A stretch of DNA of 64,000 nt from IMG/VR virus record IMGVR_UViG_3300043775_000410, positions 1 to 64,000 of that record. One strand, 5' to 3'. The notes beneath the pieces were generated by a model. That model worked only from the letters and a program-made list of their open reading frames with translations, did not search any database and was not told the DNA's origin. The position numbers were made by a program, and so were the translations under genes. This stretch comes from a virus. Its lineage: Duplodnaviria > Caudoviricetes. Positions 15,300 through 56,489 of this stretch are shown in pieces; positions within the stretch are counted from its first letter, which is position 1; each line of letters begins with the position of its first letter.

Positions 15300-15329
15300 G
15301 TGTATACGCTTAACCCTCAAAGGATGTGT

Positions 15330-17369: not shown

Positions 17370-17386
17370 TAAGGAAATAAAGAACT

Positions 17387-18753: not shown

Positions 18754-18754
18754 T

Positions 18755-19231
18755 ATGTGGAATAAAATTAAAAATGTATTAACAAATATAGCACAGCCCG
18801 AAACAGGCAAAGTTGCTCCTATAACCGAAGGCAAGAAGCGCACACAGGTTAAAACACCTAAGGTTGCTAGTACAGATCCGGCAGCTGTTAAACCTAAAAA
18901 GCCACGTGCTAGTAAAAAGAAAGTAGTAGAAGACCCTGATAAGAAACTTGCTACTAAAAATGGTGAACCTTGGGTAAAGATATTAAGTATGGATTTAGAT
19001 CCCGATGATCCAGGTAATGGTGCATTTGAATTAGATTGGAATGATAAATTTGTAGCCAACTTAATACGTGCAGGCTATCAAGGTCGAACAGATGCTGATA
19101 TTGTAGACAATTGGTTCAAAGCAATATGTCGCAATGTAATCACAGAATCATATGAACAAGATCAAGCCGATCCATCAAAACGTAATGAACGTAGACGTGA
19201 TCTAGGTAATGGTAGAACGGAAGTAAGTTGA
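18755..19231 (+). CDS. Hypothetical protein
   Basis: Lys/Pro-rich N-terminus and globular C-terminus (GAFELDWNDKF); likely ATG 18755. Confidence 0.7.
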   Translation: MWNKIKNVLTNIAQPETGKVAPITEGKKRTQVKTPKVASTDPAAVKPKKPRASKKKVVEDPDKKLATKNGEPWVKILSMDLDPDDPGNGAFELDWNDKFVANLIRAGYQGRTDADIVDNWFKAICRNVITESYEQDQADPSKRNERRRDLGNGRTEVS

Positions 19232-19956
19232 TAGTATATGTAAACGGCGATAGCCACAGTGCAGGTGCAGAAGCAGCAAATGCATTCTGTTTTTTATCCG
19301 ACGATCCGGCTATGGCCTGGGATCATTATGATCGCACACAGACTGCGGCTGGCAGGGTTCCTCACCCCGATAATGTCAAAGTTAGTTATGGGCAAAGAAT
19401 AGCAGATTATTACAATTCTACACTGGACTGCAATGCAGAAAGTGGCAGTAGTAACCAACGTATCCTACGAACTACCTATGATTATTTAAATAACAACACC
19501 CCTGAGTTAGTAATAATTGGATGGGCTACTTGGGAAAGAGAAGAATTTTTTATCGATGGCTACTGGCACCAATTTAGTGCAAACATGAATACTGACGATT
19601 TATCCGACGATGCAGTGAAATTCTATAAAAATTGGGTATTAGATAGACACAGCGTACAGCAGTACTGCGATAAAGCTCAGAAAGCTATATGGGATTTACA
19701 TCAACTGTTGATGAGTAAACATATACCACATTTATTCTTTAATACCTTTAGTGGCCTAACTACTTCTACTTTATTAGATTGGGATAATTGTTATTACCGA
19801 CCATATGAACATTCTGGTTCATTTTTTAATTTATTAAAAGCTCGAGGTTATAACACAGTTACTCCGACTAGCTACCATTACGGCGCAGATGCACACCAAG
19901 AATGGGCCAATTTTCTCTTGACAAAACTACCGAATGAAAGTATAATAACTAAATGA
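19228..19956 (+). CDS. SGNH/GDSL-like hydrolase or acyltransferase
   Basis: NGDSHSAG, SGSSNQRI and C-terminal YHYGADAH. Confidence 0.65.
   Translation: MIVYVNGDSHSAGAEAANAFCFLSDDPAMAWDHYDRTQTAAGRVPHPDNVKVSYGQRIADYYNSTLDCNAESGSSNQRILRTTYDYLNNNTPELVIIGWATWEREEFFIDGYWHQFSANMNTDDLSDDAVKFYKNWVLDRHSVQQYCDKAQKAIWDLHQLLMSKHIPHLFFNTFSGLTTSTLLDWDNCYYRPYEHSGSFFNLLKARGYNTVTPTSYHYGADAHQEWANFLLTKLPNESIITK
19918..19946 (+). promoter_or_regulatory. Consensus sigma70 promoter within the upstream CDS (probably giving a leaderless rnh mRNA)
   Basis: TTGACA-17 nt-TATAAT with 6 nt between the -10 box and ATG 19953. Confidence 0.7.
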
Positions 19957-20972: not shown

Positions 20973-20982
20973 AAAGTAAATT

Positions 20983-21567: not shown

Positions 21568-21592
21568 CTTTTTGGCTAATCAATGGTATAAT
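21564..21592 (+). promoter_or_regulatory. Sigma70-like promoter
   Basis: TTGACT-17 nt-TATAAT; the TGA of the -35 box is the stop codon of the exonuclease gene. Confidence 0.65.
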
Positions 21593-21664
21593 ATATTATG
21601 AAGAAAGGACAGAGGAAACAAAACAAAAAATGAGGATTAGTCAATTAAAAAGGTGGGAAAGAAA

Positions 21665-31809: not shown

Positions 31810-32309
31810 TTATATCAATTTTAGCTTCGACTAATACCGGTGGTATTGGTAATCGTGGTACCTTGCCTTGGCCATACAACAAGGAAGATATGAGTTGGTT
31901 TGTTCGACATACTACAGGCAACATTGTAGTCATGGGTCGTAATACCTGGGATGATCCTAAGATGCCCAAACCATTGCCCAATCGTGAAAACTATGTAGTC
32001 AGTAGTCGACACGTAGCACAACAATATCAACACTTGGTTAAATGGATTCCTAGTAACCCTGTAGATAATATCTTACAGATACAGCAGGATAATCCATCCA
32101 AAGATGTGTATGTTATTGGTGGTCAAAAATTATACGAAGCAACAGAAAGTATAGTCGATAGAGTATTGCTTACACGTGTCAAAGGTGCATGGTTCACTGA
32201 CACTCGTGTTCAGTTAGACAGCATGCTGGCTTGTTTTCAAATCAAATCAGTAACACCCGGTAATAATTGCACCTACGAAACGTGGGATCGTGTAATGTTT
32301 TTTAAATAA
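31806..32309 (+). CDS. folA: Dihydrofolate reductase
   Basis: GIGNRGTLPW, EDMSWF, VVMGRNTW, PLPNRENYVVS and VIGG. Confidence 0.95.
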   Translation: MIISILASTNTGGIGNRGTLPWPYNKEDMSWFVRHTTGNIVVMGRNTWDDPKMPKPLPNRENYVVSSRHVAQQYQHLVKWIPSNPVDNILQIQQDNPSKDVYVIGGQKLYEATESIVDRVLLTRVKGAWFTDTRVQLDSMLACFQIKSVTPGNNCTYETWDRVMFFK

Positions 32310-33004
32310 TGAAAATATTAATTGCAGGTGATAGTTGGGGCTGCGGTGAATGGGGTTGGGATTCCAACAAACGTAAATGGAAAGACGGTGATAAACATGA
32401 TGAGTCGTACATTATCACCCATCGTGGACTAGAGTATTATCTAATAGAAATAGGCCACGATGTTACTAATATTTCTTGTGGGGGTGCATCTAATAAAGAA
32501 ATATTAGTAAAACTGCACCGACTAGAGTTACAATGCTACGATCATATTATATGGTTCCAAACTGATCCTATCCGTGATCTTCGCCCGTATAGCGATAAAT
32601 TAGTTGATACGTTTGACAATTTACTTACTAAACAGAATAGTCTAATAGAGAGTACCTACCAAACATTAAATTCGTTTGATAAAAAAATTATATGCTTGGG
32701 CGGATGTAGCAAATTAAATTTAAACTTAATTAAACAATATACAAATTTATCGCCTGTTATTCCTAGCATACCCGAATTGTTAATGCCTACTTTTATTCAT
32801 CCTAAAATTTGGTTTTCGGACTGGATTGATCAATCTTGGCGGCATTTTGATGTTGACAGTTTAGATAATCTAGTATATAATAAAACATTACAAGATTCAA
32901 TTTTTGACAATGAAGAATTATTTTGGCCCGACGGAAGACATCCAAATCGTCATGCCCACCGAAAACTTTTTGAATATTTAATTACACATGAAAATCTATC
33001 TTAA
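32309..33004 (+). CDS. SGNH/GDSL-like protein
   Basis: IAGDSWGCG, GGASN and DGRHPNRHAH. Confidence 0.7.
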   Translation: MKILIAGDSWGCGEWGWDSNKRKWKDGDKHDESYIITHRGLEYYLIEIGHDVTNISCGGASNKEILVKLHRLELQCYDHIIWFQTDPIRDLRPYSDKLVDTFDNLLTKQNSLIESTYQTLNSFDKKIICLGGCSKLNLNLIKQYTNLSPVIPSIPELLMPTFIHPKIWFSDWIDQSWRHFDVDSLDNLVYNKTLQDSIFDNEELFWPDGRHPNRHAHRKLFEYLITHENLS

Positions 33005-42588: not shown

Positions 42589-42979
42589 TTATATCCTTGG
42601 CAATAATAGCTGCCCAACGATCTGCATCTTGTTCTGTTACACGTATATCATAATGCTCGGGTGGATTGAATACTTTGTTGGTATCTTCAAATCGTCCCAT
42701 TTTAATTGTGTCTACCCATACAGTATAATCAGCATCAAAAATGTCGCGTATTTCTTTAGTTGGTGCTACAAAATCACATATAACATGACCGGTACTGTCA
42801 TCGGCTAATTTTCTCATACGGTCAGCCTGACGCAATCTACCCTCAGCTGAAAAGTCCCAATCATTATGCTTTTTTCTGACAGCATCGGCATTGAACCAAA
42901 CACAGTCTAATAGATTTAATAAGGCATGCGCTAGAGTTGTTTTACCGGAGCCAGGTAAGCCACAAATTAATATTTTCAT
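42578..42979 (-). CDS. Adenylylsulfate (APS) kinase-like P-loop kinase
   Basis: GLPGSGKT, NADAVR, DFSAEGRLRQ and FNPP. Confidence 0.75.
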   Translation of the reverse strand: MKILICGLPGSGKTTLAHALLNLLDCVWFNADAVRKKHNDWDFSAEGRLRQADRMRKLADDSTGHVICDFVAPTKEIRDIFDADYTVWVDTIKMGRFEDTNKVFNPPEHYDIRVTEQDADRWAAIIAKDINET

Positions 42980-44469
42980 GATATTACTCGAACTCCGTAT
43001 AACTGCTCAAAGCGGTCAGCATCTGCACGATCATTTACCATAGGCTCACCTCTAATGTTTAAACTTGTATTAAGTAACATTGGACATCCTGTCCACGTAT
43101 ACCATAAACATAATAGTTCACGTATACCACTGCCATCTCTAGGCACAGTCTGTACACGACTAGTACCATCTACATGTATTATAGCAGGAAATTCATCAGG
43201 GCGCAAGCACTTTGCAGTGGTCTGCATGTATCTGCTTGTGGCAAATCCGTTGGGCATTTCAAAATACTCATCAACAAACTCTTCAAGTATTATAGGAGCA
43301 AAGGGTCTAAACTTTTGTCTACGCTTAATTTGATTAACAGCATCCTTAATATCAGCACCTCGTGGGTCAGCTAACAAACTACGATTACCCAATGCTCTAG
43401 GACCAAACTCCGCACGACCGCTAGCAACGCCAACAATCTTGTTGGTCATTAGTTCGGAGACAACATCGGTGCAAGGATAAGGGCCACTAATATTATGGCC
43501 AAGAAAAGCATTATTCCAATTAAGTCGACCCCCGTGTGCCAAGGCCGCCGCTCCAAGGCTGCTACCAGCATCACCAGGATTAGGCATAATCCATATTTCA
43601 TCAAAGTATTCTCCTAAATCTCTATTAGCACTACAATTAAGAGCAACACCACCCGAGTAGACTAAATTACTGTTGGGTGCTAGCTTCTTTGCCTTGTACA
43701 TAATATTATGTATCAATTGTTCAGTTAATGTCTGTGCCGCACTAGCAATTTCAAAGTCATTCCAACGAGCTCGCATGTCATTATCAGGTAGACCAACATG
43801 TAGATTGTGTTTTAATGTTAGATCAAACTCGTGATCAACTAGCCATGTTGAAAGCTCATCACTTAAATGTTTTGTATTTTGTTTTGCCCACCCAGCCATG
43901 CCCATTAAGATGTATTCTTCATCTAAGGGTTTAAGTCCAACTTCTTTAGTAAACGCACTGTACATTAAGCCAATGCTGTGTGGGTATAGTTGTCGCCATA
44001 CTCTAGTGTATTCGGCTCGACCATTAACATACTCGGCTTTCCAAATACTAATAGTATCCCACTCGCCGATAGCATCAATTACCACAACTGTAGCACTATC
44101 GAATGGACTAGTTTGAAAACCGGCTGCCGCGTGACTTAAATGATGATTGTATGTTTTAATTGGAATAGAACTGCTTAACCACGGAGCAGCTTTGGTTATC
44201 ATGTTGCGCACACTCCAACCTTTAGTCAGCTCACTGTATTGACCTGCGTAGAGTTGGCGTGTCTTTTTAACCCAAGGTCTTTCATAGTAGGCAATTAGAT
44301 CAGGTTCGCCATGATTGAATACGCAATCTTTAAGCAGTTCGCTGTTTAAGTTGGGGTCGTGTTTAATTTTGCTGTAACGTTCAGCATGCCCTGCAAAGAC
44401 AATGTCATTGCCTTTGATTAATGTAATTGCTGCGTCATGAAACCCAGCCGAGATGCCTAATATATTCAT
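42976..44469 (-). CDS. NodU/CmcH-family O-carbamoyltransferase
   Basis: HDAA, ERYSKIKH, HHLSHAA, DAIGE, GGVALNC, AEFGPRALGNRS, RPFAP, HVDGTSRVQTV and LNTSLN. Confidence 0.95.
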   Translation of the reverse strand: MNILGISAGFHDAAITLIKGNDIVFAGHAERYSKIKHDPNLNSELLKDCVFNHGEPDLIAYYERPWVKKTRQLYAGQYSELTKGWSVRNMITKAAPWLSSSIPIKTYNHHLSHAAAGFQTSPFDSATVVVIDAIGEWDTISIWKAEYVNGRAEYTRVWRQLYPHSIGLMYSAFTKEVGLKPLDEEYILMGMAGWAKQNTKHLSDELSTWLVDHEFDLTLKHNLHVGLPDNDMRARWNDFEIASAAQTLTEQLIHNIMYKAKKLAPNSNLVYSGGVALNCSANRDLGEYFDEIWIMPNPGDAGSSLGAAALAHGGRLNWNNAFLGHNISGPYPCTDVVSELMTNKIVGVASGRAEFGPRALGNRSLLADPRGADIKDAVNQIKRRQKFRPFAPIILEEFVDEYFEMPNGFATSRYMQTTAKCLRPDEFPAIIHVDGTSRVQTVPRDGSGIRELLCLWYTWTGCPMLLNTSLNIRGEPMVNDRADADRFEQLYGVRVIS

Positions 44470-45079
44470 AAATTTTATCCGCTACTATTGTATGCCCTGC
44501 TGCTAAGAAGTGTCCGTTTGGACCTTTTGGTGTGCCATAGGTCCAATCTGTCATATTATCTTTGAGCCACCCAATATAATATCTATCATCAACCCGATCA
44601 ATCATTTGACTAATATGCGTATCATTTTTAAAATACGTAAAATTATTACCAAATGAATCTAACATTATATATTTTTTATTTTGTTGTTGTAGGAAATTTT
44701 GTACTAATCTAATGTTAATTAAGTATTGGCTATATAAGTAATTATCCGAGTGATATTTGTTTAGATACTGCATTAACTCTGTTCTATAGGCTATGTCACC
44801 TGTGAACATAACTCCGCGATGACCTGGCCATGTATCATATACCCCATGTTGATCAGCAAATTCGATACGGGCAAAATGACTCCATGCAATAATGATTAAA
44901 TCATACTCTGATGCATGCTCTACTACATTCCTAACCATGCTGGTATTACCTGTGGCAGGTTTTCCTAGATTAGTTAACTCACAGGATAATTTATTTTGCA
45001 ATATATGCGGCCATGCCTGTGTAATATCAGGTAGTTCGTCGCCGTAGGTAAAGCTATCGCCAACAGTTAATATACGCAT
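44435..45079 (-). CDS. SGNH/GDSL-like protein
   Basis: VGDSFTYG, ATGN and PNGHFLAAGH. Confidence 0.75.
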   Translation of the reverse strand: MRILTVGDSFTYGDELPDITQAWPHILQNKLSCELTNLGKPATGNTSMVRNVVEHASEYDLIIIAWSHFARIEFADQHGVYDTWPGHRGVMFTGDIAYRTELMQYLNKYHSDNYLYSQYLINIRLVQNFLQQQNKKYIMLDSFGNNFTYFKNDTHISQMIDRVDDRYYIGWLKDNMTDWTYGTPKGPNGHFLAAGHTIVADKIYEYIRHLGWVS

Positions 45080-45180
45080 TATTTGTAGATAAATGGATCA
45101 CGCTTGCGTAATTCTTTTAATTTTTTACGATAGTTTATTTCTAATTTAATTCTGCGGTATAAATTCATTAACCAATTCAT
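45079..45180 (-). CDS. 33-aa basic peptide ending -DPFIYK (carbamoyltransferase-associated)
   Basis: MNWLMNLYRRIKLEINYRKKLKELRKRDPFIYK*; AAGGAG RBS; TAATG overlap with 44435..45079; not in the ORF track. Confidence 0.8.
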   Translation of the reverse strand: MNWLMNLYRRIKLEINYRKKLKELRKRDPFIYK

Positions 45181-45973
45181 TATAGTTCTCCTTGATGTAT
45201 TTTGCAGCATCTACATGTGCTGGCTCTAGTGGATGCGTTGTAGCAAATGGATATTTAAAATCCCTAGCCCATGTGTAAAATCCTTGATTGTTTGGGAATG
45301 TTACCCACCGATCAAAATCAATTTGATTATACAGTGTGGTTATGTTTTCGTCATTCATTAGATATGTACAGTTATTTAACAGTGCTTCGTCGACCATTGA
45401 AAATATATATGGTGTTTTCTTTAACTGTAGATATTGTTGCAACATAATAATTTCTGTTAGCGAATTATATGTTTCCCAATAGGCCGTTGACCCAACGTGT
45501 TTGTAAAAGGTTTTAGCAAAATCTGCTGTGCCTGTTTGTTTAGCTCGTAACAAATGATTGGTATGGTGTTGCAACACTGTTGTATTGTTGGCTCTAAATT
45601 CTTTTTTTATGTCTTCCACATTGTCGATAATTGACCAAGGATTTAGATTATACCAATTGCCCCAACGTTCGCCTGTATCATATTCAAATCTAAATTCGTA
45701 CCTGCCAGGGAATGTCCAAGTAACAATAACTAGTCCTATATTTTGTATACGTTCACAGGCGTTCATTACTGTGCGACGAATTGCACTGTTGCTGAATCCA
45801 GGATATGCCGCACACTCGTACTGCATGCCAACGTCTCGAGCTAACAGCGCCGGAAAAGTACTTTGACTGACAATTGGATAAGCGGGCTCGGTGCCATTAG
45901 GATCCAATGGTGATACACCATCAGCTAACTCGCTACCGTAGGTAAAACTATCGCCGCCTGCTAGTAAAATCAT
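45146..45973 (-). CDS. SGNH/GDSL-like protein
   Basis: GGDSFTYG, PGFSN and TTHPLEPAH. Confidence 0.75.
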   Translation of the reverse strand: MILLAGGDSFTYGSELADGVSPLDPNGTEPAYPIVSQSTFPALLARDVGMQYECAAYPGFSNSAIRRTVMNACERIQNIGLVIVTWTFPGRYEFRFEYDTGERWGNWYNLNPWSIIDNVEDIKKEFRANNTTVLQHHTNHLLRAKQTGTADFAKTFYKHVGSTAYWETYNSLTEIIMLQQYLQLKKTPYIFSMVDEALLNNCTYLMNDENITTLYNQIDFDRWVTFPNNQGFYTWARDFKYPFATTHPLEPAHVDAAKYIKENYNELVNEFIPQN

Positions 45974-45977
45974 TAAA

Positions 45978-47072
45978 TTATCTTGCCCTTTTAAGTTCTA
46001 ATATCTGTTGATCCTGATAATCAGAATCTGACCAATCATATTCATACGTAGCAGATGCCAGACTAGTTCTTAGATTGTATACATTTAGGTGAGAACCTAG
46101 CTGTGGCCATATCACGTCGTGGTCTTCTGAGCCAAACGTTCTTTGTAAATCAACCTGTCCCACTTGTGGGTGACCTATAGTTAATGATTTATCGTTAGGA
46201 TCAAATCCATTGTCTATTAACCATTGAGTAAAATCTGCTAATTCTTTTTTCATCCAATCATACTGACCCGGACTAATTGCCCATTCAATATCAAAGTCAC
46301 CTGCCGCTTCTGTTTGTGAACGCATTGCTGATGTAGTTAATTCATCAATCCTATGGCCTGCACCGCCTTCATCACGAAAGACTTCATAATGATGTTTGCC
46401 AATGGCTTTATTAACTCCTACAAATACGCCGCCTGCCGGACGATTTAAACTTTCAATTCCAAATAATTCAAAATCGTCTGCGTCTAATACAAAGCGTGGA
46501 GCATTTAACCAACACATCAATTGACTAGGTCGGCGCCATTGCGGAGCATGCACGGCTTTACGCATGCTTAGTACCAGAGATTCATATTCATGACATAATA
46601 AATTTAACTGGCGGATATGCCATTTTGTACTGTCATCGGCCTGGTTGTAATAGCCCGACATGTGACCGCTTACTCCCTGCAGATCTTCGAAATATCTATG
46701 TAGTTGATTTAGTTTATCGTGTACTAGTTTTCCGCCTTCGAGGAATTCGCCAATCTCCCCCGGCACTATGGTATTAGCCACTGTGAAATGATCGTTGATA
46801 TGATAGCCAAGGTTGGCCTGATTAATTGCTGCAATTGATTGATTGATTTGATCAGTTATATATTCTGCATTACGTCCGGACTCGACGAATCCATGAAAAC
46901 AAAAATTCTTCTCAAGGTGATAGTTATTTGCTATTAGATTGTTTAGTGCTGTTAGCCATTTGCGGCTAAGAGAGCTGTCATATACATCAATGTATACAGT
47001 TAACAGTTCATCGGTTTTATTGTTTTTTAAATCAATTTCAAGTTGATCAAGCAATGTTTTGGTACCATTCAT
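45978..47072 (-). CDS. Hypothetical protein in the modification cluster
   Basis: 364 aa; LNQLHRYFE, LNLLCHEYE and IGKH. Confidence 0.75.
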   Translation of the reverse strand: MNGTKTLLDQLEIDLKNNKTDELLTVYIDVYDSSLSRKWLTALNNLIANNYHLEKNFCFHGFVESGRNAEYITDQINQSIAAINQANLGYHINDHFTVANTIVPGEIGEFLEGGKLVHDKLNQLHRYFEDLQGVSGHMSGYYNQADDSTKWHIRQLNLLCHEYESLVLSMRKAVHAPQWRRPSQLMCWLNAPRFVLDADDFELFGIESLNRPAGGVFVGVNKAIGKHHYEVFRDEGGAGHRIDELTTSAMRSQTEAAGDFDIEWAISPGQYDWMKKELADFTQWLIDNGFDPNDKSLTIGHPQVGQVDLQRTFGSEDHDVIWPQLGSHLNVYNLRTSLASATYEYDWSDSDYQDQQILELKRAR

Positions 47073-48336
47073 ATACAGCCGGTCTCTCTTTTAATATGTC
47101 TGCTAGTGTAAGTGTATCATTACGTATACTTTCTAGTCGTAGCACACGAGCCTTGCCCTCTGCAAGACTTACTTTGTATATATCGGGCCATTGCTCGTCA
47201 AACGTTGGTCGTGATTTTAACTGCACAAGTATATCCTGCATTGCTCCAGAAGTTTGTGGGATTAGCTCATCTAACCATGGATGTAATAACTCGCGTGGGA
47301 GTGCAAGTGGACTAAGGATAATATCAGGGCTAAAGCTAAAAACAACCTTAGCCAAGATATCTACGTTTTCTTTTTCAGCAAGCTGGGTAATGTTTGTGAC
47401 TTCAAACATGCCGGGCAGTGTGAGAGTGAAGTCAATTCGCATTTGGCGTCTGTGACTTGCAATTCTAACTCCTTCACGGAAGTTTGTAAGCCATGAATTA
47501 TAGTCAAGTCCTGTTCTAATATATTCTCCAATTTCTTGCGTACCATCAAGACTTGCACATATCTGCCAATCACGTAGCCTGCTAAGAATATCACTATACA
47601 GATTGGTCCCACGGTAAGTGACACGGCTGAGGTTTGTGTTGTAACGAGCATAGACATTTTTACCATCTCCTAATTCAACAATGCGTCGCATATAACGCCA
47701 ATGTTGTTCATACATTAGTGGCTCTCCGCCTACCCAATATACTTCTTCTACTTGATGGTTCTCGACTGCATCTGCGAACTCACGTTCTATCTGAGTATCT
47801 TGGAACTGTTCAATTTGTTTTTTGACTTCAGGGCGCATCCAATTATTCTTTGGATTATCCCAATTGATCATGTTGTGGTGTCTTTGTTCAGTTTCCCATG
47901 CGCTAGACAACATATCACCGCACATACGACACTTGAAGTTGCATAAGTTACTAAATCGATAATCCCAACTCACCGGACGAAGTGTAGTAGTTCCGTCCGG
48001 TTGGGTATTCTCTACTATACTATCATATTTATGAGCAAACATCTGATCAAAATAACTACGGTAAACTGATGTGTTCAATAACTTGTCATTACACACTTCA
48101 CACTCGGGCAATATTTCACCTGCCATCATACGGCGACGCACTGACTTCATGTGGTCACTGTTCCAGTGTTCTTCTAATGTAATAGGAATGTACTTGCCTG
48201 TACCGGCACTAGTATCAATATACTGCTCAAAGTTCTGCGCTGGCTCGCGTGAGGCACAGCACATCCTGCGTTCAGTTTGTGGTGAAAGGTATGTGTGTAC
48301 CCAAGGTGCCAAACAAAGCGTTTGCGGTTTATCCAT
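47047..48336 (-). CDS. Radical SAM protein with N-terminal SPASM/Twitch domain
   Basis: CLAPW...MCC...CEVC; CNFKCRMC; GGEP; YNTN. Confidence 0.9.
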   Translation of the reverse strand: MDKPQTLCLAPWVHTYLSPQTERRMCCASREPAQNFEQYIDTSAGTGKYIPITLEEHWNSDHMKSVRRRMMAGEILPECEVCNDKLLNTSVYRSYFDQMFAHKYDSIVENTQPDGTTTLRPVSWDYRFSNLCNFKCRMCGDMLSSAWETEQRHHNMINWDNPKNNWMRPEVKKQIEQFQDTQIEREFADAVENHQVEEVYWVGGEPLMYEQHWRYMRRIVELGDGKNVYARYNTNLSRVTYRGTNLYSDILSRLRDWQICASLDGTQEIGEYIRTGLDYNSWLTNFREGVRIASHRRQMRIDFTLTLPGMFEVTNITQLAEKENVDILAKVVFSFSPDIILSPLALPRELLHPWLDELIPQTSGAMQDILVQLKSRPTFDEQWPDIYKVSLAEGKARVLRLESIRNDTLTLADILKERPAVYEWYQNIA

Positions 48337-49414
48337 TCAAATCCCAGTCTGGAAATATTTCTGCAAATTTCAGTTTTGATGTTATGTCTTCTAGTTTAAT
48401 TTTGTCAGCTAACTTAGACAGCAACGATTGATCATATTCTGTAGAATTAATAATATTAATCATTTGTTGTTTTAAGGGATGATCAGTTGCCTGACTAATC
48501 CAAGTAGTTCGTTGTTCGTTGTTTAACACAGCAAGTGATAAACAAGGAATATTTCCAACATGAGTTAAAATTATTGTAGGTTTTTTGTCCAATAGATGAG
48601 CTGGCAAATTAGAAAACCACGTGATAAATTCATTAAAACCCCATATACTAATTGCCGTAACAACATAATTTATTACAATATTGTTTGATACGGTCATCCA
48701 CTGTTCGGCTATATGTTTTACATTATTCCATTTAATGGGTCTTCTTTGATATTCAAAGTACGATCCGCCACCATCAATGCTTAGGGTAATTGACACTATA
48801 TCAAATAATTTTAATTTATCTAATAACAATGGATCTAACTTACTTGCATTGGTAACTAGACTAATAGAAATATTTTTTGATATTCCTTTATTAATATAAT
48901 AGTCTAAAATTTTGTAAGTAGACGGATGTATAGTTGGCTCGCCACCTATCAGAGTAAGTGTCTTAATATTTAGATACGGCAATTCGTCAATATTTTCGTT
49001 GGCACGCCGAATAGTATGAATTGTGTGTTGCTTAGTGTCATGCTTTCTCAACCAATTATTTCGCTTACTACTAGCCCAGCCACTGCATATAATACATTCA
49101 GCATTACAATAATTACCTATATTAATTGATACTTGAGTTACCTCATCTACCGATGTTACATCCTCGCTGAATGACGATTTGTTGCCTATGGCTGCAATAA
49201 AATCAGATCTCGCGCTGTGCAATTGATTTTTTTCATTGTTCCAGCAACGATTACAACAAGGACTTTGTTGATCATTTAAAAATGCCTGTTTAAGTTTTGA
49301 TATGTCTGCTTCGCTTCTAATCCGTTGTGAGTCACAGCAAGGAGAAACTTCCTCAAGCGGATTAATATATCGATTTGTCCATGGTGCTGGACAAAAATTA
49401 TTAGTTGACATCAT
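48329..49414 (-). CDS. Radical SAM protein with N-terminal SPASM/Twitch domain
   Basis: CPAPW...PCC...CNRCW; CNAECIIC; GGEP; LSIDG. Confidence 0.88.
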   Translation of the reverse strand: MMSTNNFCPAPWTNRYINPLEEVSPCCDSQRIRSEADISKLKQAFLNDQQSPCCNRCWNNEKNQLHSARSDFIAAIGNKSSFSEDVTSVDEVTQVSINIGNYCNAECIICSGWASSKRNNWLRKHDTKQHTIHTIRRANENIDELPYLNIKTLTLIGGEPTIHPSTYKILDYYINKGISKNISISLVTNASKLDPLLLDKLKLFDIVSITLSIDGGGSYFEYQRRPIKWNNVKHIAEQWMTVSNNIVINYVVTAISIWGFNEFITWFSNLPAHLLDKKPTIILTHVGNIPCLSLAVLNNEQRTTWISQATDHPLKQQMINIINSTEYDQSLLSKLADKIKLEDITSKLKFAEIFPDWDLNG

Positions 49415-51914
49415 TATATCCCATGGCTAGTGCAATTTCTCTATGCGTGGTTAACATACTCTGCTCACGATAAGCATCTGTCTGTTGCATCTTACGTAGG
49501 AATTCTATACCATCACTGCCTTGGCCATTTTCAATAAACTGAATTATCTTATCAATTTCAACACGATGCTTAACAGCAAATGGATAAGCAGTTAATCGAT
49601 CTATAACTAATCGTTGAGCAGCAGGTGTCATTCGATTAATACACATAACATTTGGATCATGTAACATATTAAAATACACATAATCAAATGTTTGAGTATC
49701 AGCCCATTGACAAAATTCAGGCAAGTAATAAACATTCTGTATATTAACAGTAATGCATACTTGAGTATCTAATTTATCACTGCGCAGACTATTAAATTTA
49801 ATAATATTATCCTGCACTTCTTGCCAATCAGCGCCGTAACGTTCGTATTCAAATCGTGCTTCGGTATTATCTACACTAACTGCGATCTCAACATCCTTAA
49901 ACTTACTCCACATCTCAACAACATCGTCGCCCGGATATACTGTTCCGTTAGTATTATAGTGAATATCAATACGATCACTGTAGCCTTGCTCAACTGCATA
50001 TCGTAGCAATTCAAAATGCTGTTCAATTAAAAACGGCTCACCACCAGTAAACTCAAAATATTTAATATTAGGCAACAATTCTTTAAGATTCGTCCAAAAG
50101 TCTGGGCTGTTTCTTGGCCAACTTCCTTCTTGTAAAAACATCCATGCACCGTGTTCTTTTCGATCGAAGTCCGGATCAGCATTGGCTAGATAGTCAATTT
50201 CTTCTTTGGCCCATTTGCTACTTGACCAACTGCCGCATATACGACATTTAAGATTGCAGATGTTACCTAGTTTAAGATCAATGAACCACAGTTGGTCGGG
50301 TGTATCATTACGCCAGTCTACCAAAGGATAAAATTCTTTTAATCTAATTCTACTATTGATACGCTTACTTTGTCTACCAGCATCTTCTTCATCCCAGCAA
50401 CGTTGACAGGTTGCAGGTTTTTCACCTTTACGAAATTGTTGTCGCAGATCCTGCATGTATTCGCTATTGTAAATTTCTACAATAGTACTTTCAGTTAGTT
50501 TATATGGTGTGCCATCACTCTTAGTAATTTCGTCTTTGGCCAAACAACACGGACGAGCTGTACCTACCGGACTTGCTTCTATACTAACCCAAGGTAACAT
50601 ACAGATATTTTCGTGTGTGGTATTGATACCCACAGCAGCACGTAACTCGCTGTATTCTGGGAATACTGCTTCAAACTCTTCTTTACGATAGTCATCAAGT
50701 TGATCTGCTACCTTAAAGAATTCACCTAGTAAGTGGCTTTTATCATCCTGATACATAAATGTTATGATAGCCTTGTATCCACTGACTGCACGATCAAGTT
50801 TATCTAACGGTTCTAGCCAAGCTATGTGTTCTTCGACTTTTTGTCGTATGCGATCTTTATACATAATAGGCAATGCATCCAGACGATTTCTTTCAGGACT
50901 TTGTAGGATATTAATGTTCCAATCCATTGGTCTGATTAAGCCAAGCTCAACCCACTCACGATGAAAATCCATTACGTGCCATGCATTAAAGATACTTACA
51001 GTACTACTGATATAAAAGTCTACTTTAGGGCAAATTTCTATCATCTTCCGACGATTATCAACAATTTCATCCCACACTGTGCCCTTACGTATATACTCGC
51101 CGCGAGCATAACTATCGTCTAAACTTGCGCCCACACTTACTACATCAAATAATTTCCAATACTCAAATACCATCTTATCTTTAAGACGTATGTGGCTAAA
51201 GTTTGTATTGTAGATCAGTCTAACATGAAACATTTTTCGCTTGACTAGTTCTTCTAAGATGCGATAATGTTCTTCCATAATCAACGGTTCGCCACCAGCA
51301 AAGTAAATCTGCTCTAGGTAAGGAATATGCTCCTGCATTTGTTCCCACATGTCTTCTTTATCACGTCCAGCAAACATAAATTGCGGATGATTGCGTTTGC
51401 CAAATATCTCAGTTTCTTCTTTATACCAACTGCTGCTAAACCAACTACCACAGGTGCGGCAACTGAAGTTACATAGATTAGTAAAACGTATATCGTAGTA
51501 GCGTAATTTAAAATCTTCAAACGTACCGTCTTCTAAAGTTTGATCTACCAGCGCAATATGCTGTCCAAAATTCTTGTTAGCACTGTTACGCATACTAAAG
51601 AAGCCATTTTCTTCTTGTTCGTAACAACGTGCGCACTCTTTACTAGGCTTATCTTCGATCATATTAACACGCATTTGTCGATATGGTACACTGTTCCATA
51701 TTTCTTTCATGGTATTTTCTCTTAGATTACCAATAGGCAAATGCATTTCGCCTAGACAGCAAGGATATGCTCGACCATCAGGAATTCCATGCATATGAAT
51801 CCACGGAATCATACAAAAATTATCACTGTCAATTAGTTTATATTTTTGCGGATCTGATAATGATTCTAACGGTATGTATTCAGGTTTTCGTGCATTGTAA
51901 TTTTTATCGCTCAT
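49401..51914 (-). CDS. Tandem double SPASM/Twitch-radical SAM protein
   Basis: Two full units: CMIPW..PCC..CARC / CNFSCRTC / GGEP, and CMLPW..PCC..CQRC / CNLKCRIC / GGEP. Confidence 0.92.
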   Translation of the reverse strand: MSDKNYNARKPEYIPLESLSDPQKYKLIDSDNFCMIPWIHMHGIPDGRAYPCCLGEMHLPIGNLRENTMKEIWNSVPYRQMRVNMIEDKPSKECARCYEQEENGFFSMRNSANKNFGQHIALVDQTLEDGTFEDFKLRYYDIRFTNLCNFSCRTCGSWFSSSWYKEETEIFGKRNHPQFMFAGRDKEDMWEQMQEHIPYLEQIYFAGGEPLIMEEHYRILEELVKRKMFHVRLIYNTNFSHIRLKDKMVFEYWKLFDVVSVGASLDDSYARGEYIRKGTVWDEIVDNRRKMIEICPKVDFYISSTVSIFNAWHVMDFHREWVELGLIRPMDWNINILQSPERNRLDALPIMYKDRIRQKVEEHIAWLEPLDKLDRAVSGYKAIITFMYQDDKSHLLGEFFKVADQLDDYRKEEFEAVFPEYSELRAAVGINTTHENICMLPWVSIEASPVGTARPCCLAKDEITKSDGTPYKLTESTIVEIYNSEYMQDLRQQFRKGEKPATCQRCWDEEDAGRQSKRINSRIRLKEFYPLVDWRNDTPDQLWFIDLKLGNICNLKCRICGSWSSSKWAKEEIDYLANADPDFDRKEHGAWMFLQEGSWPRNSPDFWTNLKELLPNIKYFEFTGGEPFLIEQHFELLRYAVEQGYSDRIDIHYNTNGTVYPGDDVVEMWSKFKDVEIAVSVDNTEARFEYERYGADWQEVQDNIIKFNSLRSDKLDTQVCITVNIQNVYYLPEFCQWADTQTFDYVYFNMLHDPNVMCINRMTPAAQRLVIDRLTAYPFAVKHRVEIDKIIQFIENGQGSDGIEFLRKMQQTDAYREQSMLTTHREIALAMGYNDVN

Positions 51915-53287
51915 AGTGTTTCGTACCAGTCCGCTAATTGTGTAAATGTGTATTTAAAGTCTAGACCACGACGCTGGTCGTATTGCTGATAAAAGTTTTT
52001 AAAGTCACGTTGTAATACTTCACGTGATAGTGCTCCACTATGTGGACTGTTCACAGTCTGTAAGTACTCAATCAATCTAGCCAATTGATTATATTCAGAT
52101 TCGTGTAGTTCACTGTGTGCTGCTTCGCCAAATTGTTGTAGGTCTTCGGCCATTTGTTCACGTATCTCAATAGGCAAGATCAACGGACTTTGGAAACTAG
52201 GGAATCGTAAGATGTTTAGACTAAAGTTAATTGCATCCTTGCCATAAGTGCCTTTAAGTTTTACTATCATCCATAACAAATCAGTAAGGCTTAGTAAGCA
52301 TAGAGCATTGATGGTACACATAACATGTAGGCCTCGCAATTTCTTGCTATCCAATAGATACTGTACATTGCTAACCCATTGATCCCAATCCAAGCCATCA
52401 CGTATATACATTGCATGACGGCCCCACGATTCATTGCTAGTGTACAAATCCAATTCGATACCTTGTGTAGCATCTAATAACCTCTCTAATTTATCTTTCT
52501 CAAATCCTAAATTACTATTGATGGCAAGACGTGTAGTACTTTGTCCTTTATTCTTTTGAAACCATTCTATTAGACGCCAGGTGTATCCTGACATTAAAGG
52601 TTCGCCACCTGTGATGCGCAGTTCTTTTAACGTCTTGTGTAGGTCTGTTTCCCACCATTTGAAGAACGCTTCGACATAAGGATTAACTTCATCGAGCTTA
52701 AACAATTGATTGCTATCATGAGTATGAGTAAAGTGGTTACGTCCATCCGACACCAAATCGGTGTAGGCACCGTTATTCCGAATGTCTTTAACCCAAGTAG
52801 TGCTAAATGCAGGGTTACAGTAGCTACAAGCAAACTGACAAGTGCGGTCAAAGGCGATTTCCAAAGTCCGGAGGTTAACATCTTGATCCGAAGGTAAATT
52901 GTATGCATAGTTTAAATCCTCATCGTTATAAATTACAGTTTTGTACACCCGATCACTAATAGGAGTTGGTACATCAACCCCATCATACTTAGGATCTTTA
53001 TACATGTCTTCAATCTTCCAGCAGTATTCGCATCCGCTAGGACGATCACCTACCTGCATCTGTTTACGCTCTAATTTCTTTTGCGGAGTGTTATGGATAG
53101 CACTAGGATTAGTTTTAATTGCTTCTAGGTCAATAGCATGCGGCAATGGGTGATGACAGCTAGTAGTCTGTCCCGACCCTAACCATATAGTAGCGTTATA
53201 CCATTTAGCCGCGCAGAATGATTCTGACTTAATGTCAATTACTCTACGCTTATATTCTAAATCTGTTTCGTTAGCTATTTTCGGCAT
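51911..53287 (-). CDS. Radical SAM protein with N-terminal SPASM/Twitch domain
   Basis: CAAKW...SCHHP...CEYCW; CQFACSYC; TGGEP. Confidence 0.9.
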   Translation of the reverse strand: MPKIANETDLEYKRRVIDIKSESFCAAKWYNATIWLGSGQTTSCHHPLPHAIDLEAIKTNPSAIHNTPQKKLERKQMQVGDRPSGCEYCWKIEDMYKDPKYDGVDVPTPISDRVYKTVIYNDEDLNYAYNLPSDQDVNLRTLEIAFDRTCQFACSYCNPAFSTTWVKDIRNNGAYTDLVSDGRNHFTHTHDSNQLFKLDEVNPYVEAFFKWWETDLHKTLKELRITGGEPLMSGYTWRLIEWFQKNKGQSTTRLAINSNLGFEKDKLERLLDATQGIELDLYTSNESWGRHAMYIRDGLDWDQWVSNVQYLLDSKKLRGLHVMCTINALCLLSLTDLLWMIVKLKGTYGKDAINFSLNILRFPSFQSPLILPIEIREQMAEDLQQFGEAAHSELHESEYNQLARLIEYLQTVNSPHSGALSREVLQRDFKNFYQQYDQRRGLDFKYTFTQLADWYETL

Positions 53288-54665
53288 GGTATTTGCACTC
53301 CTGCCAAAACTCTTTCATTTGTGGGAACGTTTCCAAAAATATTAATCCCCTGCGTTTGTCGTATTCATTGAAGAACTTATAAAAGTCTGCTCTTTGTATT
53401 GTAACATAGTCTGCGGCAAGTTCGCAACCTTGTTTCATCCATTCAACATTACGTTCCATACGTTGTATTTCATAATCTTTAAAGCCTTCGAAGTTATCAG
53501 CTGTTTCGTCTGCTTGATTTGCTCGCATAAAGGTAACAACATCTTCCAATATGTGGACATAGCTTGCTGGTAGTATTTGTAAACTTTGATATGTTGGACT
53601 GCGTAACAAGGGTGTATCAAACCATACACGTTGATAGGTTGAACTGTATTTTTTACGCATCTCTAATATTGATTCAAGTAATTGCTTTAGTCCCAGTATG
53701 TTTAAATTATTCATTGTGATAATAAACGTTAGACTATTGCGATAAGGAATGTCAGTTAGAAATTGATGCGCATAAGACATGCATCTAAAATAATGTAGTC
53801 CGTCGCGAATATATTCTGCATGCTCGCTGTTACCTGTGTCTAGGCTAACATACTGCATAAAGTGTTCAATGCGTTCACCTTCACATAGTTGCTTAACTTT
53901 ATCTATGTATTTCTTAAACAGGTTACTATCTACACTAAAGTTACTAGTTACATCAACATGTAAATCACTCTTAGGCAGGGCAAGTATGTAGTCAAACACA
54001 CGATGTGTATTCTTATCCATTAACGGCTCGCCACCAGTCATACGGAAGTGTTTTAAACTGCCGTATAAGTCCGGCCACCAACGCCAAAATGCTTCTACAT
54101 AGGGATTTTCCGCACGTACAGGAATTGGCTTACGTCTGCCTTCAAAGTGTTCAGGCGCATTGTGCGGTACACTAGTTGGATAAGCACCCCAACGATCAAT
54201 GTCTTTGCCCCATTCTGTTGAGTACTGTGGACTGCAATAGCTACAGGCTAGATTACAGCCGTGACTAAAGTTTACTTCTACGTAACTTGGTACAACGTCT
54301 TGGTCCCACGGTGCATTTACTATAGTTTCGTAGTGTTCAGCTGCCCATGGCTCACCACTACGATAGTGTCTATCGCTTAATTGTTTGTTATCTTCTGCTG
54401 ACCAACAATAACTACATTCACTAGGACGTTGCTGTTCTAACATCAGCTTACGCTGTTGTTTTTTATGTGCTGTGTTATGTAGTGCGCCAGGATTGAACAG
54501 CAACGGCGCACTATCAATTTCGTGCAATGGTGGATGATAGCAACTGTTGGTTAGCCCAGTTGGCAAGTGTAGACTTACCTGTTGCCATTTAGCCAAGCAG
54601 AGTGCAGGACCTAATTTGTCCTTCATTTCTTCTGCTGTTGACATAAAGTCGCTTTTAGTTTTCAT
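53271..54665 (-). CDS. Radical SAM protein with N-terminal SPASM/Twitch domain
   Basis: CLAKW...SCYHP...CSYCW; CNLACSYC; TGGEP. Confidence 0.9.
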   Translation of the reverse strand: MKTKSDFMSTAEEMKDKLGPALCLAKWQQVSLHLPTGLTNSCYHPPLHEIDSAPLLFNPGALHNTAHKKQQRKLMLEQQRPSECSYCWSAEDNKQLSDRHYRSGEPWAAEHYETIVNAPWDQDVVPSYVEVNFSHGCNLACSYCSPQYSTEWGKDIDRWGAYPTSVPHNAPEHFEGRRKPIPVRAENPYVEAFWRWWPDLYGSLKHFRMTGGEPLMDKNTHRVFDYILALPKSDLHVDVTSNFSVDSNLFKKYIDKVKQLCEGERIEHFMQYVSLDTGNSEHAEYIRDGLHYFRCMSYAHQFLTDIPYRNSLTFIITMNNLNILGLKQLLESILEMRKKYSSTYQRVWFDTPLLRSPTYQSLQILPASYVHILEDVVTFMRANQADETADNFEGFKDYEIQRMERNVEWMKQGCELAADYVTIQRADFYKFFNEYDKRRGLIFLETFPQMKEFWQECKYHAENS

Positions 54666-55620
54666 AATGCGGAATGATTCTTGTAACCTGTTTGTTATAT
54701 TGTTGAGCTATTAATAACTGACGATTATATTCTATAGTGTGTTGCATTTTAATATTTAACTCTACCAACTCTGCTGTTGATAATTTTGCTAAACGATCAA
54801 TTAATTCTAAGATAGCAAGGTATCGTGCTTTACCATCTGCGTTATCATATAGCTCGGGCCAATATTCATCAAACGTTTTAAATCCTATTTGTTTTAAATA
54901 GCCAAGATAAAATTTAGATGCCATAACAATAAAAGGTTTTCTACATAATATTGCACGTGCAATCTTTTCAGTAGGATAAAATGTATTACCTAAAGTCGTA
55001 GCTTCAACTACAATATCTACAAAAATATTTTTGTATAGATTATTAAGATCACTATTGTAATCATAACTACCAGTGGTGTACTCGTATGCAGGTATAGGTT
55101 GAAAATATTGTTCTTTATTTTGTACTAACTGATCTAATTTAGCTGCGCCAGTTGTATCCCAGGCAAATAGTTTTTGTATATCAACTAACTTGCGTGTGTC
55201 TTCACTGTCTGTGTTAAATCTTAATTGTAATAAACTTTTGTCATTATAATGTTGCGCTAAATGGCCTGCAATGCCAACCCGAGGTGCACTAGGTCTTCCG
55301 TAAAAACATCCAAATATTTTTGTTTGATTCCACGTATAGTCATTCGATGTTTTAAATTTTCTAGATTGTTTTAACCAATATGCCCAATTAATAACAATTC
55401 TATATCTATCGTGGCATTCAACAGCATTGGCAGTTACAATAGTAACTGAAGTAAATGTAAATAAATCGAGTATTGCATACACTCCACAAAATTGCAAGCA
55501 ATGTGATTCTTGATTTACAATTAACTTAATATCTGTATGTTCGTGATCACGGCAGAATTTAATAAATGGAGTAATATTGTGCAGCTGATCATTTTCTAAT
55601 TGTAGTGTATACGTATTCAT
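54655..55620 (-). CDS. Putative glycosyltransferase-like protein
   Basis: VDIVVEAT...FYPTEKIARAILCRKPFI...GFKTF resembles the donor-binding TEK motif of GT-B/GT10-like enzymes; likely ATG 55620. Confidence 0.55.
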   Translation of the reverse strand: MNTYTLQLENDQLHNITPFIKFCRDHEHTDIKLIVNQESHCLQFCGVYAILDLFTFTSVTIVTANAVECHDRYRIVINWAYWLKQSRKFKTSNDYTWNQTKIFGCFYGRPSAPRVGIAGHLAQHYNDKSLLQLRFNTDSEDTRKLVDIQKLFAWDTTGAAKLDQLVQNKEQYFQPIPAYEYTTGSYDYNSDLNNLYKNIFVDIVVEATTLGNTFYPTEKIARAILCRKPFIVMASKFYLGYLKQIGFKTFDEYWPELYDNADGKARYLAILELIDRLAKLSTAELVELNIKMQHTIEYNRQLLIAQQYNKQVTRIIPHYEN

Positions 55621-56489
55621 TGCAGTTGCTCTAATAGATAATCGGCCCATACTCGATGACCTTCAGCAAGTGGATGATTAATTCCTCTAAAATAACAGGA
55701 GTCTGATACTAATTGTTTTCGTGTCATTGCCAAATCGGTTAGGCTACACATCCATTGCAATAATAAGGTTCGATCTATATCTGGTTTAAATCCAGTAATG
55801 ATTCCGGGCAGTTTTTCCAATACCCAATGCGACATAATATAACATTGACCGAGATATTCCTGATTAATTATTTGTTCGCTGTATACTTGTAACCAACTTT
55901 TAGGTAAGATTGTTATAGCTGGATTCATGCCAATAGGATCAACAAAGTTAGTACCCACTATTACTTTAACGTGTTGATATTTTGCAGCTAATTCAACTAT
56001 TGAATCCTGTTGTAGTCCATTATGATATTTTATAATAGAATCAAACTTATCAACTGAATCAAATGTTTGGTTACTGAACCACGTGACATAATCGTTGTGT
56101 TTGTCAAACGGTCCATCAAATGTTCGACATGCTTCAGTAAATGTGCATATGATTATAATATTAGTATAATCTAATTGCGGAATAAGTGTGTCTAATTCTG
56201 TTATTTTATTAATTATATATAAATTACAAGTACCACTCTGCCCTAGGCTTAAGAAGTCAGCACCTAATTTAGTTGCAACGATGTTTCCATACATCTTGTC
56301 TAATCTTTCCTGAGACATTGCATAATCATCTAGGCAAATATCGGCACCAAATGTCCAGCTATCACCGATGGTAACCACTAATGTATTTGAATTTCGATCA
56401 ATGAAATTATATGGATAAACAGGATAAGTTCGCCAAACTTCTGGGATATAAGAAAAATAATTATTTAAATTATCATTGCTTAACTTCAT
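55617..56489 (-). CDS. SGNH/GDSL-like protein
   Basis: IGDSWTFG, SGTCN and INHPLAEGH. Confidence 0.7.
   Translation of the reverse strand: MKLSNDNLNNYFSYIPEVWRTYPVYPYNFIDRNSNTLVVTIGDSWTFGADICLDDYAMSQERLDKMYGNIVATKLGADFLSLGQSGTCNLYIINKITELDTLIPQLDYTNIIIICTFTEACRTFDGPFDKHNDYVTWFSNQTFDSVDKFDSIIKYHNGLQQDSIVELAAKYQHVKVIVGTNFVDPIGMNPAITILPKSWLQVYSEQIINQEYLGQCYIMSHWVLEKLPGIITGFKPDIDRTLLLQWMCSLTDLAMTRKQLVSDSCYFRGINHPLAEGHRVWADYLLEQLQ

Follow-up and report, generated by a model that had tools for sequence, protein, structure and literature searches.

In the Dlt and PatAB systems, an acyl group reaches an SGNH-fold enzyme on a tyrosine: as described in the sections of PMC12148441 on this motif, an invariant tyrosine in a C-terminal 'acyl shuttle' sequence, FXYXXF, carries the acyl group to the SGNH serine, the motif of N. 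gonorrhoeae PatA reads FIYANF, and O-acetyl-tyrosine alone serves as donor for PatB. We examined a basic microprotein of 33 amino acids (aa) encoded on the minus strand of a 64,000-nucleotide (nt) stretch of viral DNA, hereafter the window (Duplodnaviria; Caudoviricetes; positions 1 to 64,000 of the IMG/VR record IMGVR_UViG_3300043775_000410), in which the peptide gene lies between two SGNH-like genes followed by a gene for a TobZ/NodU-type O-carbamoyltransferase (CT). Whatever its mechanism, the peptide stands for a microprotein family that lacks annotation, comprises at least 413 clusters at 50% identity and was overlooked when the genome of a cultured jumbo phage was annotated for deposition; the tail at its C-terminus is invariant and co-inherited with one CT clade, and Rosetta-stone fusions link this tail to the DUF6071 family. 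By analogy with the acyl shuttles, the tail tyrosine may be O-carbamoylated by the CT and the group passed on to an SGNH serine, forming a soluble carbamoyl-tyrosine relay without MBOAT, a reading that we favor tentatively and place just short of an even chance.

The locus resembles DltX and PatA in four respects. The tyrosine is invariant, near the C-terminus and in an F-I-Y context; the tyrosine carrier occurs either as a separate microprotein (as DltX) or as a fused tail (as PatA), and both forms are also found in the peptide family; the partner is an SGNH-fold protein with a nucleophilic serine, and the open reading frames (ORFs) flanking the phage peptide are SGNH-like with this serine invariant; and an upstream acyl-activating enzyme has the CT as its counterpart in the phage system. 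By contrast, the phage system possesses neither MBOAT nor membrane helix, and its putative loader is a soluble TobZ-type CT. As anticipated in the first-pass annotation of this DNA, Pfam scans of 76 non-overlapping window ORFs of at least 60 aa revealed no MBOAT family. The transferred group would be carbamoyl rather than acyl, and the fused tails of the peptide family sit on the SGNH (unloading) protein and not on the loader.

The 33-codon ORF is a real gene. The longest small frame encodes 43 aa from a start at 45210, and the 33-aa form starts at an ATG at 45180, 7 nt downstream of an AAGGAG sequence (45193-45188), with GGAG-type sites located at equal spacing in relatives. The best 120 homologues include 98 with a length of 33 aa, and the upstream ATG is absent in several relatives, so the conserved start is that of the 33-aa form. 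The TAA stop codon of the peptide shares its final A with the ATG of the downstream 214-aa SGNH-like gene (TAATG), and 35 nt of the small ORF lie, in a different frame, within the 3' end of the upstream 275-aa SGNH-like gene. Thus, the order of SGNH, peptide, SGNH and carbamoyltransferase genes on the minus strand, the peptide's own ribosome-binding site and its TAATG coupling, all claimed earlier, agree with the ORFs and letters of the sequence. The peptide family is conserved under strong purifying selection, the ratio of non-synonymous to synonymous polymorphism (pN/pS) being 0.21 overall for 54 distinct 33-codon genes (pS of 0.77, with synonymous sites near saturation), 0.12 for codons 13-33, which the overlap with the upstream gene does not reach, and 0.07 for codons 21-33. 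In one sample, contigs of RNA libraries extend across the peptide gene, including a 916-nt contig over 44465-45380, although they do not prove transcription because DNA can occur in such libraries. The window copy carries a net charge of +8 (the median across 74 distinct peptides from phages and bacteria is +9), and none of the 74 has a hydrophobic run longer than 5 residues or a transmembrane helix, in line with the earlier description of a basic peptide without such a helix.

Using the natural 43-aa frame of the window as query, a word-indexed search returned 389 clusters at 90% identity, the best 120 of which all end in DPF(I/L)Y(K/R), and a profile search of 1.84 billion representatives yielded the clusters at 50% identity counted above (E <= 0.001). 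Asp28, Pro29 and Tyr32 are invariant in all 74 distinct peptides, giving a tail of D-P-(F/Y)-x-Y, while R18, E23, L24, K26, R27, F30, I31 and K33 are at least 90% conserved. The motif x-P-(F/Y)-x-Y was present in 139 of 149 fetched representatives, at 0-1 residue from the C-terminus in 127 of these; five further representatives keep the tyrosine in a variant motif (DPFNY twice, DPHIY twice and DHFIY once), and the remaining five diverge ahead of the motif in a manner resembling frameshift or truncation. Replacement of the tyrosine by phenylalanine was found neither among the 144 representatives that keep the motif region nor among the 74 distinct copies, so that the invariance of Tyr32, which had been put forward as a test of the carrier idea, holds in both sets. 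No Pfam, NCBIfam or PHROG model matches the peptide, and the source databases label it only as 'hypothetical protein'. A tandem double form of the soluble peptide also exists: the 75-aa protein P0121 contains two ...DPFIYK units in one ORF.

The peptide is closely linked to the CT. A peptide ORF was found in 12 of 12 close viral loci with a CT. In a wider set of 80 viral loci with CTs 54-95% identical to that of the window, a small ORF ending in D-P-(F/Y)-(I/V/L)-Y plus 0-3 residues lies upstream of the CT on the same strand in 73. Its distance to the CT start varies: 32 copies abut it, 2 lie within 200 nt, 30 at 500-800 nt (with one gene between), 8 at 1.0-1.6 kb and 1 at 2.4 kb. As for the other seven loci, one carries the variant ...DTFIY, one lacks upstream DNA and five contain nothing. 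Given that the opposite strand yielded motif-ended short ORFs in only 2 of 160 loci, one of which is a true DUF5989 gene, the linkage is far above chance. It extends to a cultured phage, the 344-kb Ralstonia phage RsoM2USA (MG752970), in which an unannotated 36-codon ORF ending in DPFIYK (L002:4026-4136) sits between RsoM2USA_201 and RsoM2USA_200, both DUF6071-like, just upstream of a CT annotated as a hypothetical protein; the homologues of the 275-aa protein in this phage match DUF6071 at 9e-10 and 2e-12. In the marine virus AG-345-D19, the peptide precedes the CT as well. The CT of this virus (L004:5819-7211) is split over two frames, 5819-5926 and 5871-7211, probably through a frameshift in the assembly of DNA amplified from single cells.

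Scanning one genome per prokaryotic species with the CT alignment gave 80 loci of two kinds. Loci of the first kind contain short CTs (43-64% identical), and eleven of them encode a free basic peptide ending in ...DPFIY(K), DPFMYK, DPYLYK or DPFLYK; among them are loci of Streptomyces lancefieldiae, Nonomuraea, Micromonospora, a Reyranella metagenome-assembled genome (MAG) and a 2.6-Mb gammaproteobacterial contig. Those of the second kind contain long CTs (31-35% identical, about 606 aa) and a different small protein, DUF5989, considered below. A CT tree of 129 non-redundant rows (L106 was labelled by hand) splits into short and long clades with an SH-aLRT value of 100. Among the 84 rows of the short clade, 71 have a free peptide, 4 a fused tail and 9 none, and among the 45 rows of the long clade, 25 have DUF5989 and 20 none. 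This division by tail type indicates that the tyrosine-tailed element is a heritable trait of CT clades and not an accident of one phage. The proposed linkage to carbamoyltransferases is therefore borne out, in 73 of 80 viral loci and in 75 of the 84 short-clade rows. No tyrosine-tailed small ORF was found at the distant phage CT loci of S-CAM3, HTVC008M, S-SSM7 and phage C48C1, which include cyanophages and a pelagiphage; the CTs of the first three fall in the other clade, and that of C48C1 forms a long branch. The net charge of the CT did not usefully separate the two clades.

The 497-aa CT of the window has both Pfam domains of its family, the Kae1-like N domain and the YrdC-like C domain, and its His/Asp metal ligands, H109, H110 and H113 (of the HH-x-S-H motif) and D132, are invariant in 41 CT sequences. 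It belongs to the same two-domain family as the solved enzymes NovN (1.9e-48), GdmN and TobZ (4.5e-32), which are its closest solved relatives, and it is a family member rather than NodU itself because its score does not reach the NCBIfam NodU equivalog cut-off (149 vs 1000 bits). The solved enzymes measure 576-702 aa and are not known to have a peptide partner; by contrast, the phage CT, at 497 aa, belongs to the clade that carries the tyrosine-tailed element.

Of the two ORFs flanking the peptide, the 214-aa ORF gave weak GDSL matches in addition to its DUF6071 match, and the 275-aa ORF, without any Pfam match, was caught only by a hidden Markov model (HMM) built from relatives of the locus. 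In an alignment of 48 sequences of this SGNH-like family, Ser12 is invariant and Asn61, His211 and His217 are present in at least 90%, so the partner looks catalytically intact as judged from its residues, although the alignment does not keep the Asp of the classical D-x-x-H. The SGNH-like/DUF6071 family also has a W-(T/S)-x-x-x-R-x-E-F motif, in which Arg96 is invariant and the Glu nearly so; this family-specific arginine could bind the tail Asp or the C-terminal carboxylate of the tail. At the nucleophile block, both SGNH-like genes of AG-345-D19 have G-C-S where G-D-S would be expected, a variant shared by many DUF6071 proteins of bacteria (47 of 194 HMM matches).

In five bacterial loci the tail is fused, via about 60 low-complexity residues, to the C-terminus of the DUF6071 protein adjacent to the CT (Table 1), with Pfam DUF6071 E values of 1e-32 to 4e-45 for the proteins of L119, L109 and L173. 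Among 21 homologues of the Sorangium fusion, seven end in DPF(I/L)Y(D/P) and one in EFLYP. By the Rosetta-stone principle, such fusions tie the peptide tail to DUF6071 at the sequence level. DUF6071 is single-copy and adjoins the CT in 4 of 4 genomes checked; of 401 genomes sampled from the phylum to which the Streptomyces genome belongs, the centre genome alone was positive for DUF6071, and it is thus too rare in this sample to give a co-occurrence statistic. Among the 80 viral loci, 56 have an SGNH-like gene no more than 5 kb from the CT. In phages, SGNH genes come and go or lie elsewhere, while the bacterial triad is tight. An AlphaFold2 (AF2) model of the Sorangium fusion has a confident SGNH core, with a predicted local distance difference test (pLDDT) score of 80.6 overall. 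By VIA-align it matched SGNH hydrolases at Z 11-13, the top entry being the Nostoc Alr1529 GDSL-like lipase (1vjg, Z 13.1), with TesA and CE2 esterases among the others, and the DUF6071 profile matched the G-D-S-L protein 4rsh in the PDB at 1.5e-05. PatB (8tlb) ranked 42 in Foldseek and was outside the best 50 VIA-align entries, and CgnD (8a2n), the hydrolase of the crocagin pathway, reached Z 11.4 (root-mean-square deviation 4.1, 183 residues aligned) at rank 42, tied with many SGNH hydrolases. As far as the model can tell, this fold comparison favors neither the PatB nor the CgnD analogy.

A second tyrosine-tailed small protein accompanies the long CTs. The tree labels covered 156 CT-bearing loci, and in 34 of these the long CTs form a module of CT, an SxtJ-like membrane protein, DUF5989 and an N-terminally anchored Lipase_GDSL_2 protein (9e-18), with the DUF5989 protein (5e-24) ending in APFIYTLF. 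The remark in the first-pass annotation that small PFIY-ending proteins accompany carbamoyltransferases and GDSL proteins in bacteria is thereby confirmed. In 24 DUF5989 proteins, P46, F47 and Y49 are invariant within P-F-(I/V)-Y. The gene order of the module equals that of sxtI, sxtJ, sxtK and sxtL, which are listed in this order in the passages of PMC2679770 and PMC7073992 on the saxitoxin genes, where SxtL is a GDSL-lipase homologue and proposed decarbamoylase and SxtJ and SxtK are called unknown or 'regulatory' helpers of carbamoyl transfer. One Omnitrophota locus (L154:9007-9340) contains two adjacent DUF5989 genes. The phage locus and this module are alike in having a small protein with an invariant P-F-x-Y near its C-terminus beside a CT and an SGNH/GDSL protein. 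They differ in that DUF5989 has a transmembrane helix, ends in Y-x-x-F and is partnered by SxtJ and a membrane-anchored GDSL protein, whereas the phage peptide has none of these (SxtJ had no match in the window Pfam scans), and in that the DUF5989-associated CT falls in the other deep clade. Thus, the same F-I-Y stands beside an SGNH protein with two CT clades, once in a membrane microprotein and once in a soluble one.

Membership of the peptide itself in DUF5989 is rejected by profile (Pfam, genome scan and hhalign). The peptide had no Pfam match to DUF5989 (PF19451) at E <= 1, there was none in the whole viral record at E <= 10, and an hhalign comparison of the 74 peptides with the 24 DUF5989 proteins gave a 22% probability over 8 N-terminal columns, as against 84-85 bits for true members. 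Since it was recovered as a member of neither DltX/PatA nor DUF5989, the peptide would work like these proteins rather than belong to them. In the literature library searched, no paper on DUF5989 or DUF6071 was found; among the papers listed, judged by title and abstract, none links DltX-type shuttles with carbamoyltransferases, nothing relevant concerned a tyrosine shuttle for carbamoyl groups, and for the combination of microprotein, SGNH protein and tyrosine only the PatAB work was found, as paper and preprint.

We reasoned that a relay of the following kind would account for these features. The soluble basic microprotein would have its flexible C-terminal tail, D-P-F-I-Y(-K), as the working part. 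The TobZ-type CT makes carbamoyl-AMP from carbamoyl phosphate and ATP, as is usual for its family, and would then O-carbamoylate the phenol of Tyr32. The resulting aryl carbamate would be an activated donor that carbamoylates the serine of the neighbouring DUF6071-type SGNH proteins, by analogy with transfer from acetyl-tyrosine to PatB and from D-alanyl-tyrosine to DltD. In the last step the SGNH protein would transfer this group to what the surrounding operon builds, at a hydroxyl or amine; the operon has sugar-nucleotide, glycosyltransferase-like and radical-SAM genes. In its general form, the proposal is that an MBOAT-independent soluble relay runs on a free or SGNH-fused tail, with DUF6071 proteins unloading it to acceptor-specific targets, and that CT, SxtJ, DUF5989 and GDSL constitute the same relay across a membrane; we regard this wider version as somewhat less than evenly probable. 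As to the relay put forward in the first-pass annotation, peptide conservation, CT linkage, tyrosine invariance, the DUF5989 parallel and the SGNH fusions argue for it, whereas the FXYXXF ending and the DUF5989 membership were not found.

Several points weigh against a carbamoyl-tyrosine relay. After F-I-Y the phage tail continues for only 0-2 variable residues, so that the X-X-F half of FXYXXF is absent. A cytoplasmic system has no membrane to cross, and the rationale of Dlt and Pat is therefore missing. The likeness of the peptide to DUF5989, as far as their sequences can be compared, is one of motif and context, with no detectable homology. Enzymes that pass through a carbamoyl-serine typically turn over slowly. 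TobZ, NovN and GdmN carbamoylate small-molecule acceptors directly and are not known to use a helper, and the CT family therefore needs no shuttle in principle. In structural terms, the DUF6071 model is no nearer to PatB than to ordinary esterases. The linker and tail of the Sorangium fusion (residues 255-300) have pLDDT <50, and thus no docking in cis into the SGNH site is predicted, an outcome of modelling that would speak neither for nor against the relay. Finally, in 24 of the 80 viral loci the 5 kb on either side of the CT are free of SGNH-like genes, and most of these loci retain the peptide, in the gene order radical SAM, 364-aa protein, peptide and CT, indicating that the tight pair in phages is that of peptide and CT.

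This last point, together with the 32 of 73 peptide copies that abut or overlap the CT start and the co-inheritance of the peptide with one CT clade, would also be expected if the peptide were a non-covalent partner, its basic helix and D-P-F-I-Y tail docking on the CT as an activator or stabilizer, or as a tether that recruits the SGNH protein, with the tyrosine serving only for binding. The SGNH fusion via about 60 disordered residues resembles a tether, and the solved members of the CT family are not known to need a carrier. However, docking leaves unexplained why P-F-(I/V)-Y with an invariant tyrosine recurs in DUF5989, why the tail matches the F-I-Y of proven acyl-tyrosine shuttles that serve SGNH enzymes, and why the tyrosine is never phenylalanine in any of the 74 copies or 144 representatives. 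We consider this explanation unlikely.

A precursor resembling those of peptides synthesized ribosomally and modified post-translationally (RiPPs) is a still more doubtful alternative. On the model of crocagin, the peptide or fused tail would itself be the substrate, carbamoylated by the CT, in phages perhaps altered by radical SAM enzymes, and released by the SGNH hydrolase. In the parts of PMC10070186 that deal with these proteins, CgnA is a 21-aa precursor in which a positively charged leader of 18 aa precedes a C-terminal I-Y-W core; this core is released by CgnD, a Ser/His hydrolase, and CgnI is the carbamoyltransferase. The phage locus is alike in combining a short peptide, a basic N-terminal part, a C-terminal aromatic I-Y motif, an SGNH-fold Ser/His hydrolase and a CT; a radical SAM family with SPASM/twitch domains is present in six copies close to the phage peptide gene, and an adjoining acidic cyclophilin-fold protein could bind a basic, proline-containing peptide. 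An invariant core with a variable leader is also reminiscent of cofactor-type RiPPs. By contrast, the radical SAM genes are dispensable: the 11 bacterial loci with a peptide or tail have no such gene within 5 kb, whereas 67 of 80 viral loci do, and the acidic protein is phage-specific. The crocagin pathway needs the binding proteins CgnB and CgnE and the 2-oxoglutarate dioxygenase CgnC, and the window Pfam scans contained no CgnB/E- or CgnC-like family, the Pfam coverage of CgnB/E being unchecked. CgnA is consumed into the product, and CgnD does not appear specifically close to DUF6071: the Z score that associates it with the DUF6071 model is shared by ordinary SGNH hydrolases, and the DUF6071 profile did not match it at E <= 1. 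The surrounding genes encode sugar-nucleotide enzymes, and, in the pathway descriptions of PMC2679770 and PMC7073992, saxitoxin is not derived from the small DUF5989/SxtK protein. A third possibility, that the tyrosine hydroxyl is a glycogenin-like primer or anchor for a glycan decorated by CT and SGNH, would suit an invariant tyrosine tail in a large, glycan-building-looking operon next to tail-fibre genes, but is highly improbable given that the element follows the CT clade and not glycosyltransferases and that minimal bacterial modules consist of a CT and a tailed DUF6071 protein alone.

If the carbamoyl-tyrosine relay is true, tyrosine-mediated transfer to SGNH enzymes would not be restricted to membrane MBOAT systems or to acyl groups, and pairing a tyrosine tail with an SGNH protein would be a general way of carrying both acyl and carbamoyl groups. 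Testable first functions would follow for the unnamed peptide family, DUF6071 and DUF5989/SxtJ, and the GDSL protein long annotated as 'decarbamoylase' would be reinterpreted. In giant freshwater phages, the product of a radical-SAM and sugar operon would then be decorated by this relay, in which a cyclophilin-fold protein may act as presenter.

The putative presenter is the 364-aa protein, a conserved upstream neighbour of the phage peptide gene with homologues in 56 viral loci and 2 genome loci. Its AF2 model (pLDDT 87.4) gave VIA-align Z scores of 9.4-10.3 to cyclophilins over about 140 aligned residues and contains a helical insert at about residues 62-177, and nothing was found for it in Foldseek at E <= 0.001, in the ESM Atlas or by sequence profile in the PDB. 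Given that cyclophilins bind X-Pro peptides, this protein of predicted cyclophilin fold might present the peptide through the invariant Asp-Pro.

The peptide locus is part of a 73-kb viral record judged to be about 21% complete, and near-identical DNA occurs in lake and freshwater metagenomes. In order of transcription, the minus-strand genes are five radical SAM ORFs, the 364-aa and 275-aa proteins, the small ORF, the 214-aa protein, the 497-aa CT, a 133-aa kinase, a dCMP deaminase and an 802-aa repeat protein (Table 1). The iterated HMM recovered five SGNH-like ORFs in the window, which is the number claimed earlier; in that earlier reading a single CT would serve all five.

Table 1. Features of the peptide locus in the window, and tails fused to bacterial DUF6071 proteins
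Feature	Location	Strand	Basis or remark
33-aa basic microprotein gene, MNWLMNLYRRIKLEINYRKKLKELRKRDPFIYK	45079..45180	-	ORF, start and stop in sequence; conserved element: tail D28-P29-F30-I31-Y32
AAGGAG ribosome-binding site, 7 nt upstream of peptide ATG	45188..45193	-	sequence
SGNH-like protein, 275 aa	45146..45973	-	N-terminus GGDSFTYGSE; Asn and His blocks present; HMM from relatives
SGNH-like protein, Pfam DUF6071, 214 aa	44435..45079	-	DUF6071 2.4e-07, 31.1 bits vs cut-off 27
TobZ/NodU-type O-carbamoyltransferase (CT), short clade, 497 aa	42976..44469	-	Carbam_trans_N 7e-38, Carbam_trans_C 4.1e-47; phrog_1601 7.6e-96
Acidic protein, no family match, 364 aa	45978..47072	-	cyclophilin-like barrel with helical insert in AF2 model; net charge -21
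P-loop kinase (AAA_33 / APS-kinase-like), 133 aa	42578..42979	-	Pfam; phrog_10255 'kinase' 9.1e-32; start coupled to CT stop
Five ORFs with six copies of N-terminal-twitch radical SAM family	47047..54665	-	NF033640 E 4.7e-56 to 7.5e-215; Radical_SAM and SPASM in Pfam
Third SGNH-like ORF, same operon as peptide	55617..56489	-	reads IGDSWTFGAD ... INHPLAEGH; iterated HMM
Fourth SGNH-like ORF, far from cluster	19228..19956	+	HMM; DUF6071 8e-04, below cut-off
Fifth SGNH-like ORF	32309..33004	+	iterated HMM only; no Pfam match
Fused tail ...RRDPFIYD	Sorangium L119		DUF6071 protein beside CT
Fused tail ...SDPYIYP	Streptomyces L109, L123, L132		DUF6071 proteins beside CT
Fused tail ...INFIYT	Clostridia MAG L173		DUF6071 protein beside CT

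The operon adjoins tail-fibre-like genes, of which 60636-62078 carries a Peptidase_G2 intramolecular-chaperone domain, and faces a plus-strand sugar-nucleotide block of two epimerase/dehydratases, two DegT aminotransferases, a GFO oxidoreductase and a PIG-L deacetylase. The dCMP deaminase gene (42166-42588, minus strand) lies inside the minus-strand operon, between those of the kinase and the 802-aa protein. The latter protein (39765-42173, minus strand) contains four repeats of F-x-W-x-P-(D/E)-P ... (Y/M)-I-(Y/H)-x-F, two of which read DP..PPYIY.F and recall the peptide tail, though internally. It has no Pfam, NCBIfam or PHROG match, and homologues occupy the equivalent place in related loci.

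Elsewhere in the window, dihydrofolate reductase and thymidylate synthase genes lie within 31806-33821 on the plus strand. Near the DNA polymerase B gene, the same strand encodes GTP cyclohydrolase I (14184-14912), a phosphoribosyltransferase (17387-17881), a radical SAM protein (17854-18753) and a PTPS/QueD-like protein (21653-22522), and this set (14184-22522) could constitute a 7-deazaguanine-type nucleotide or DNA modification pathway.

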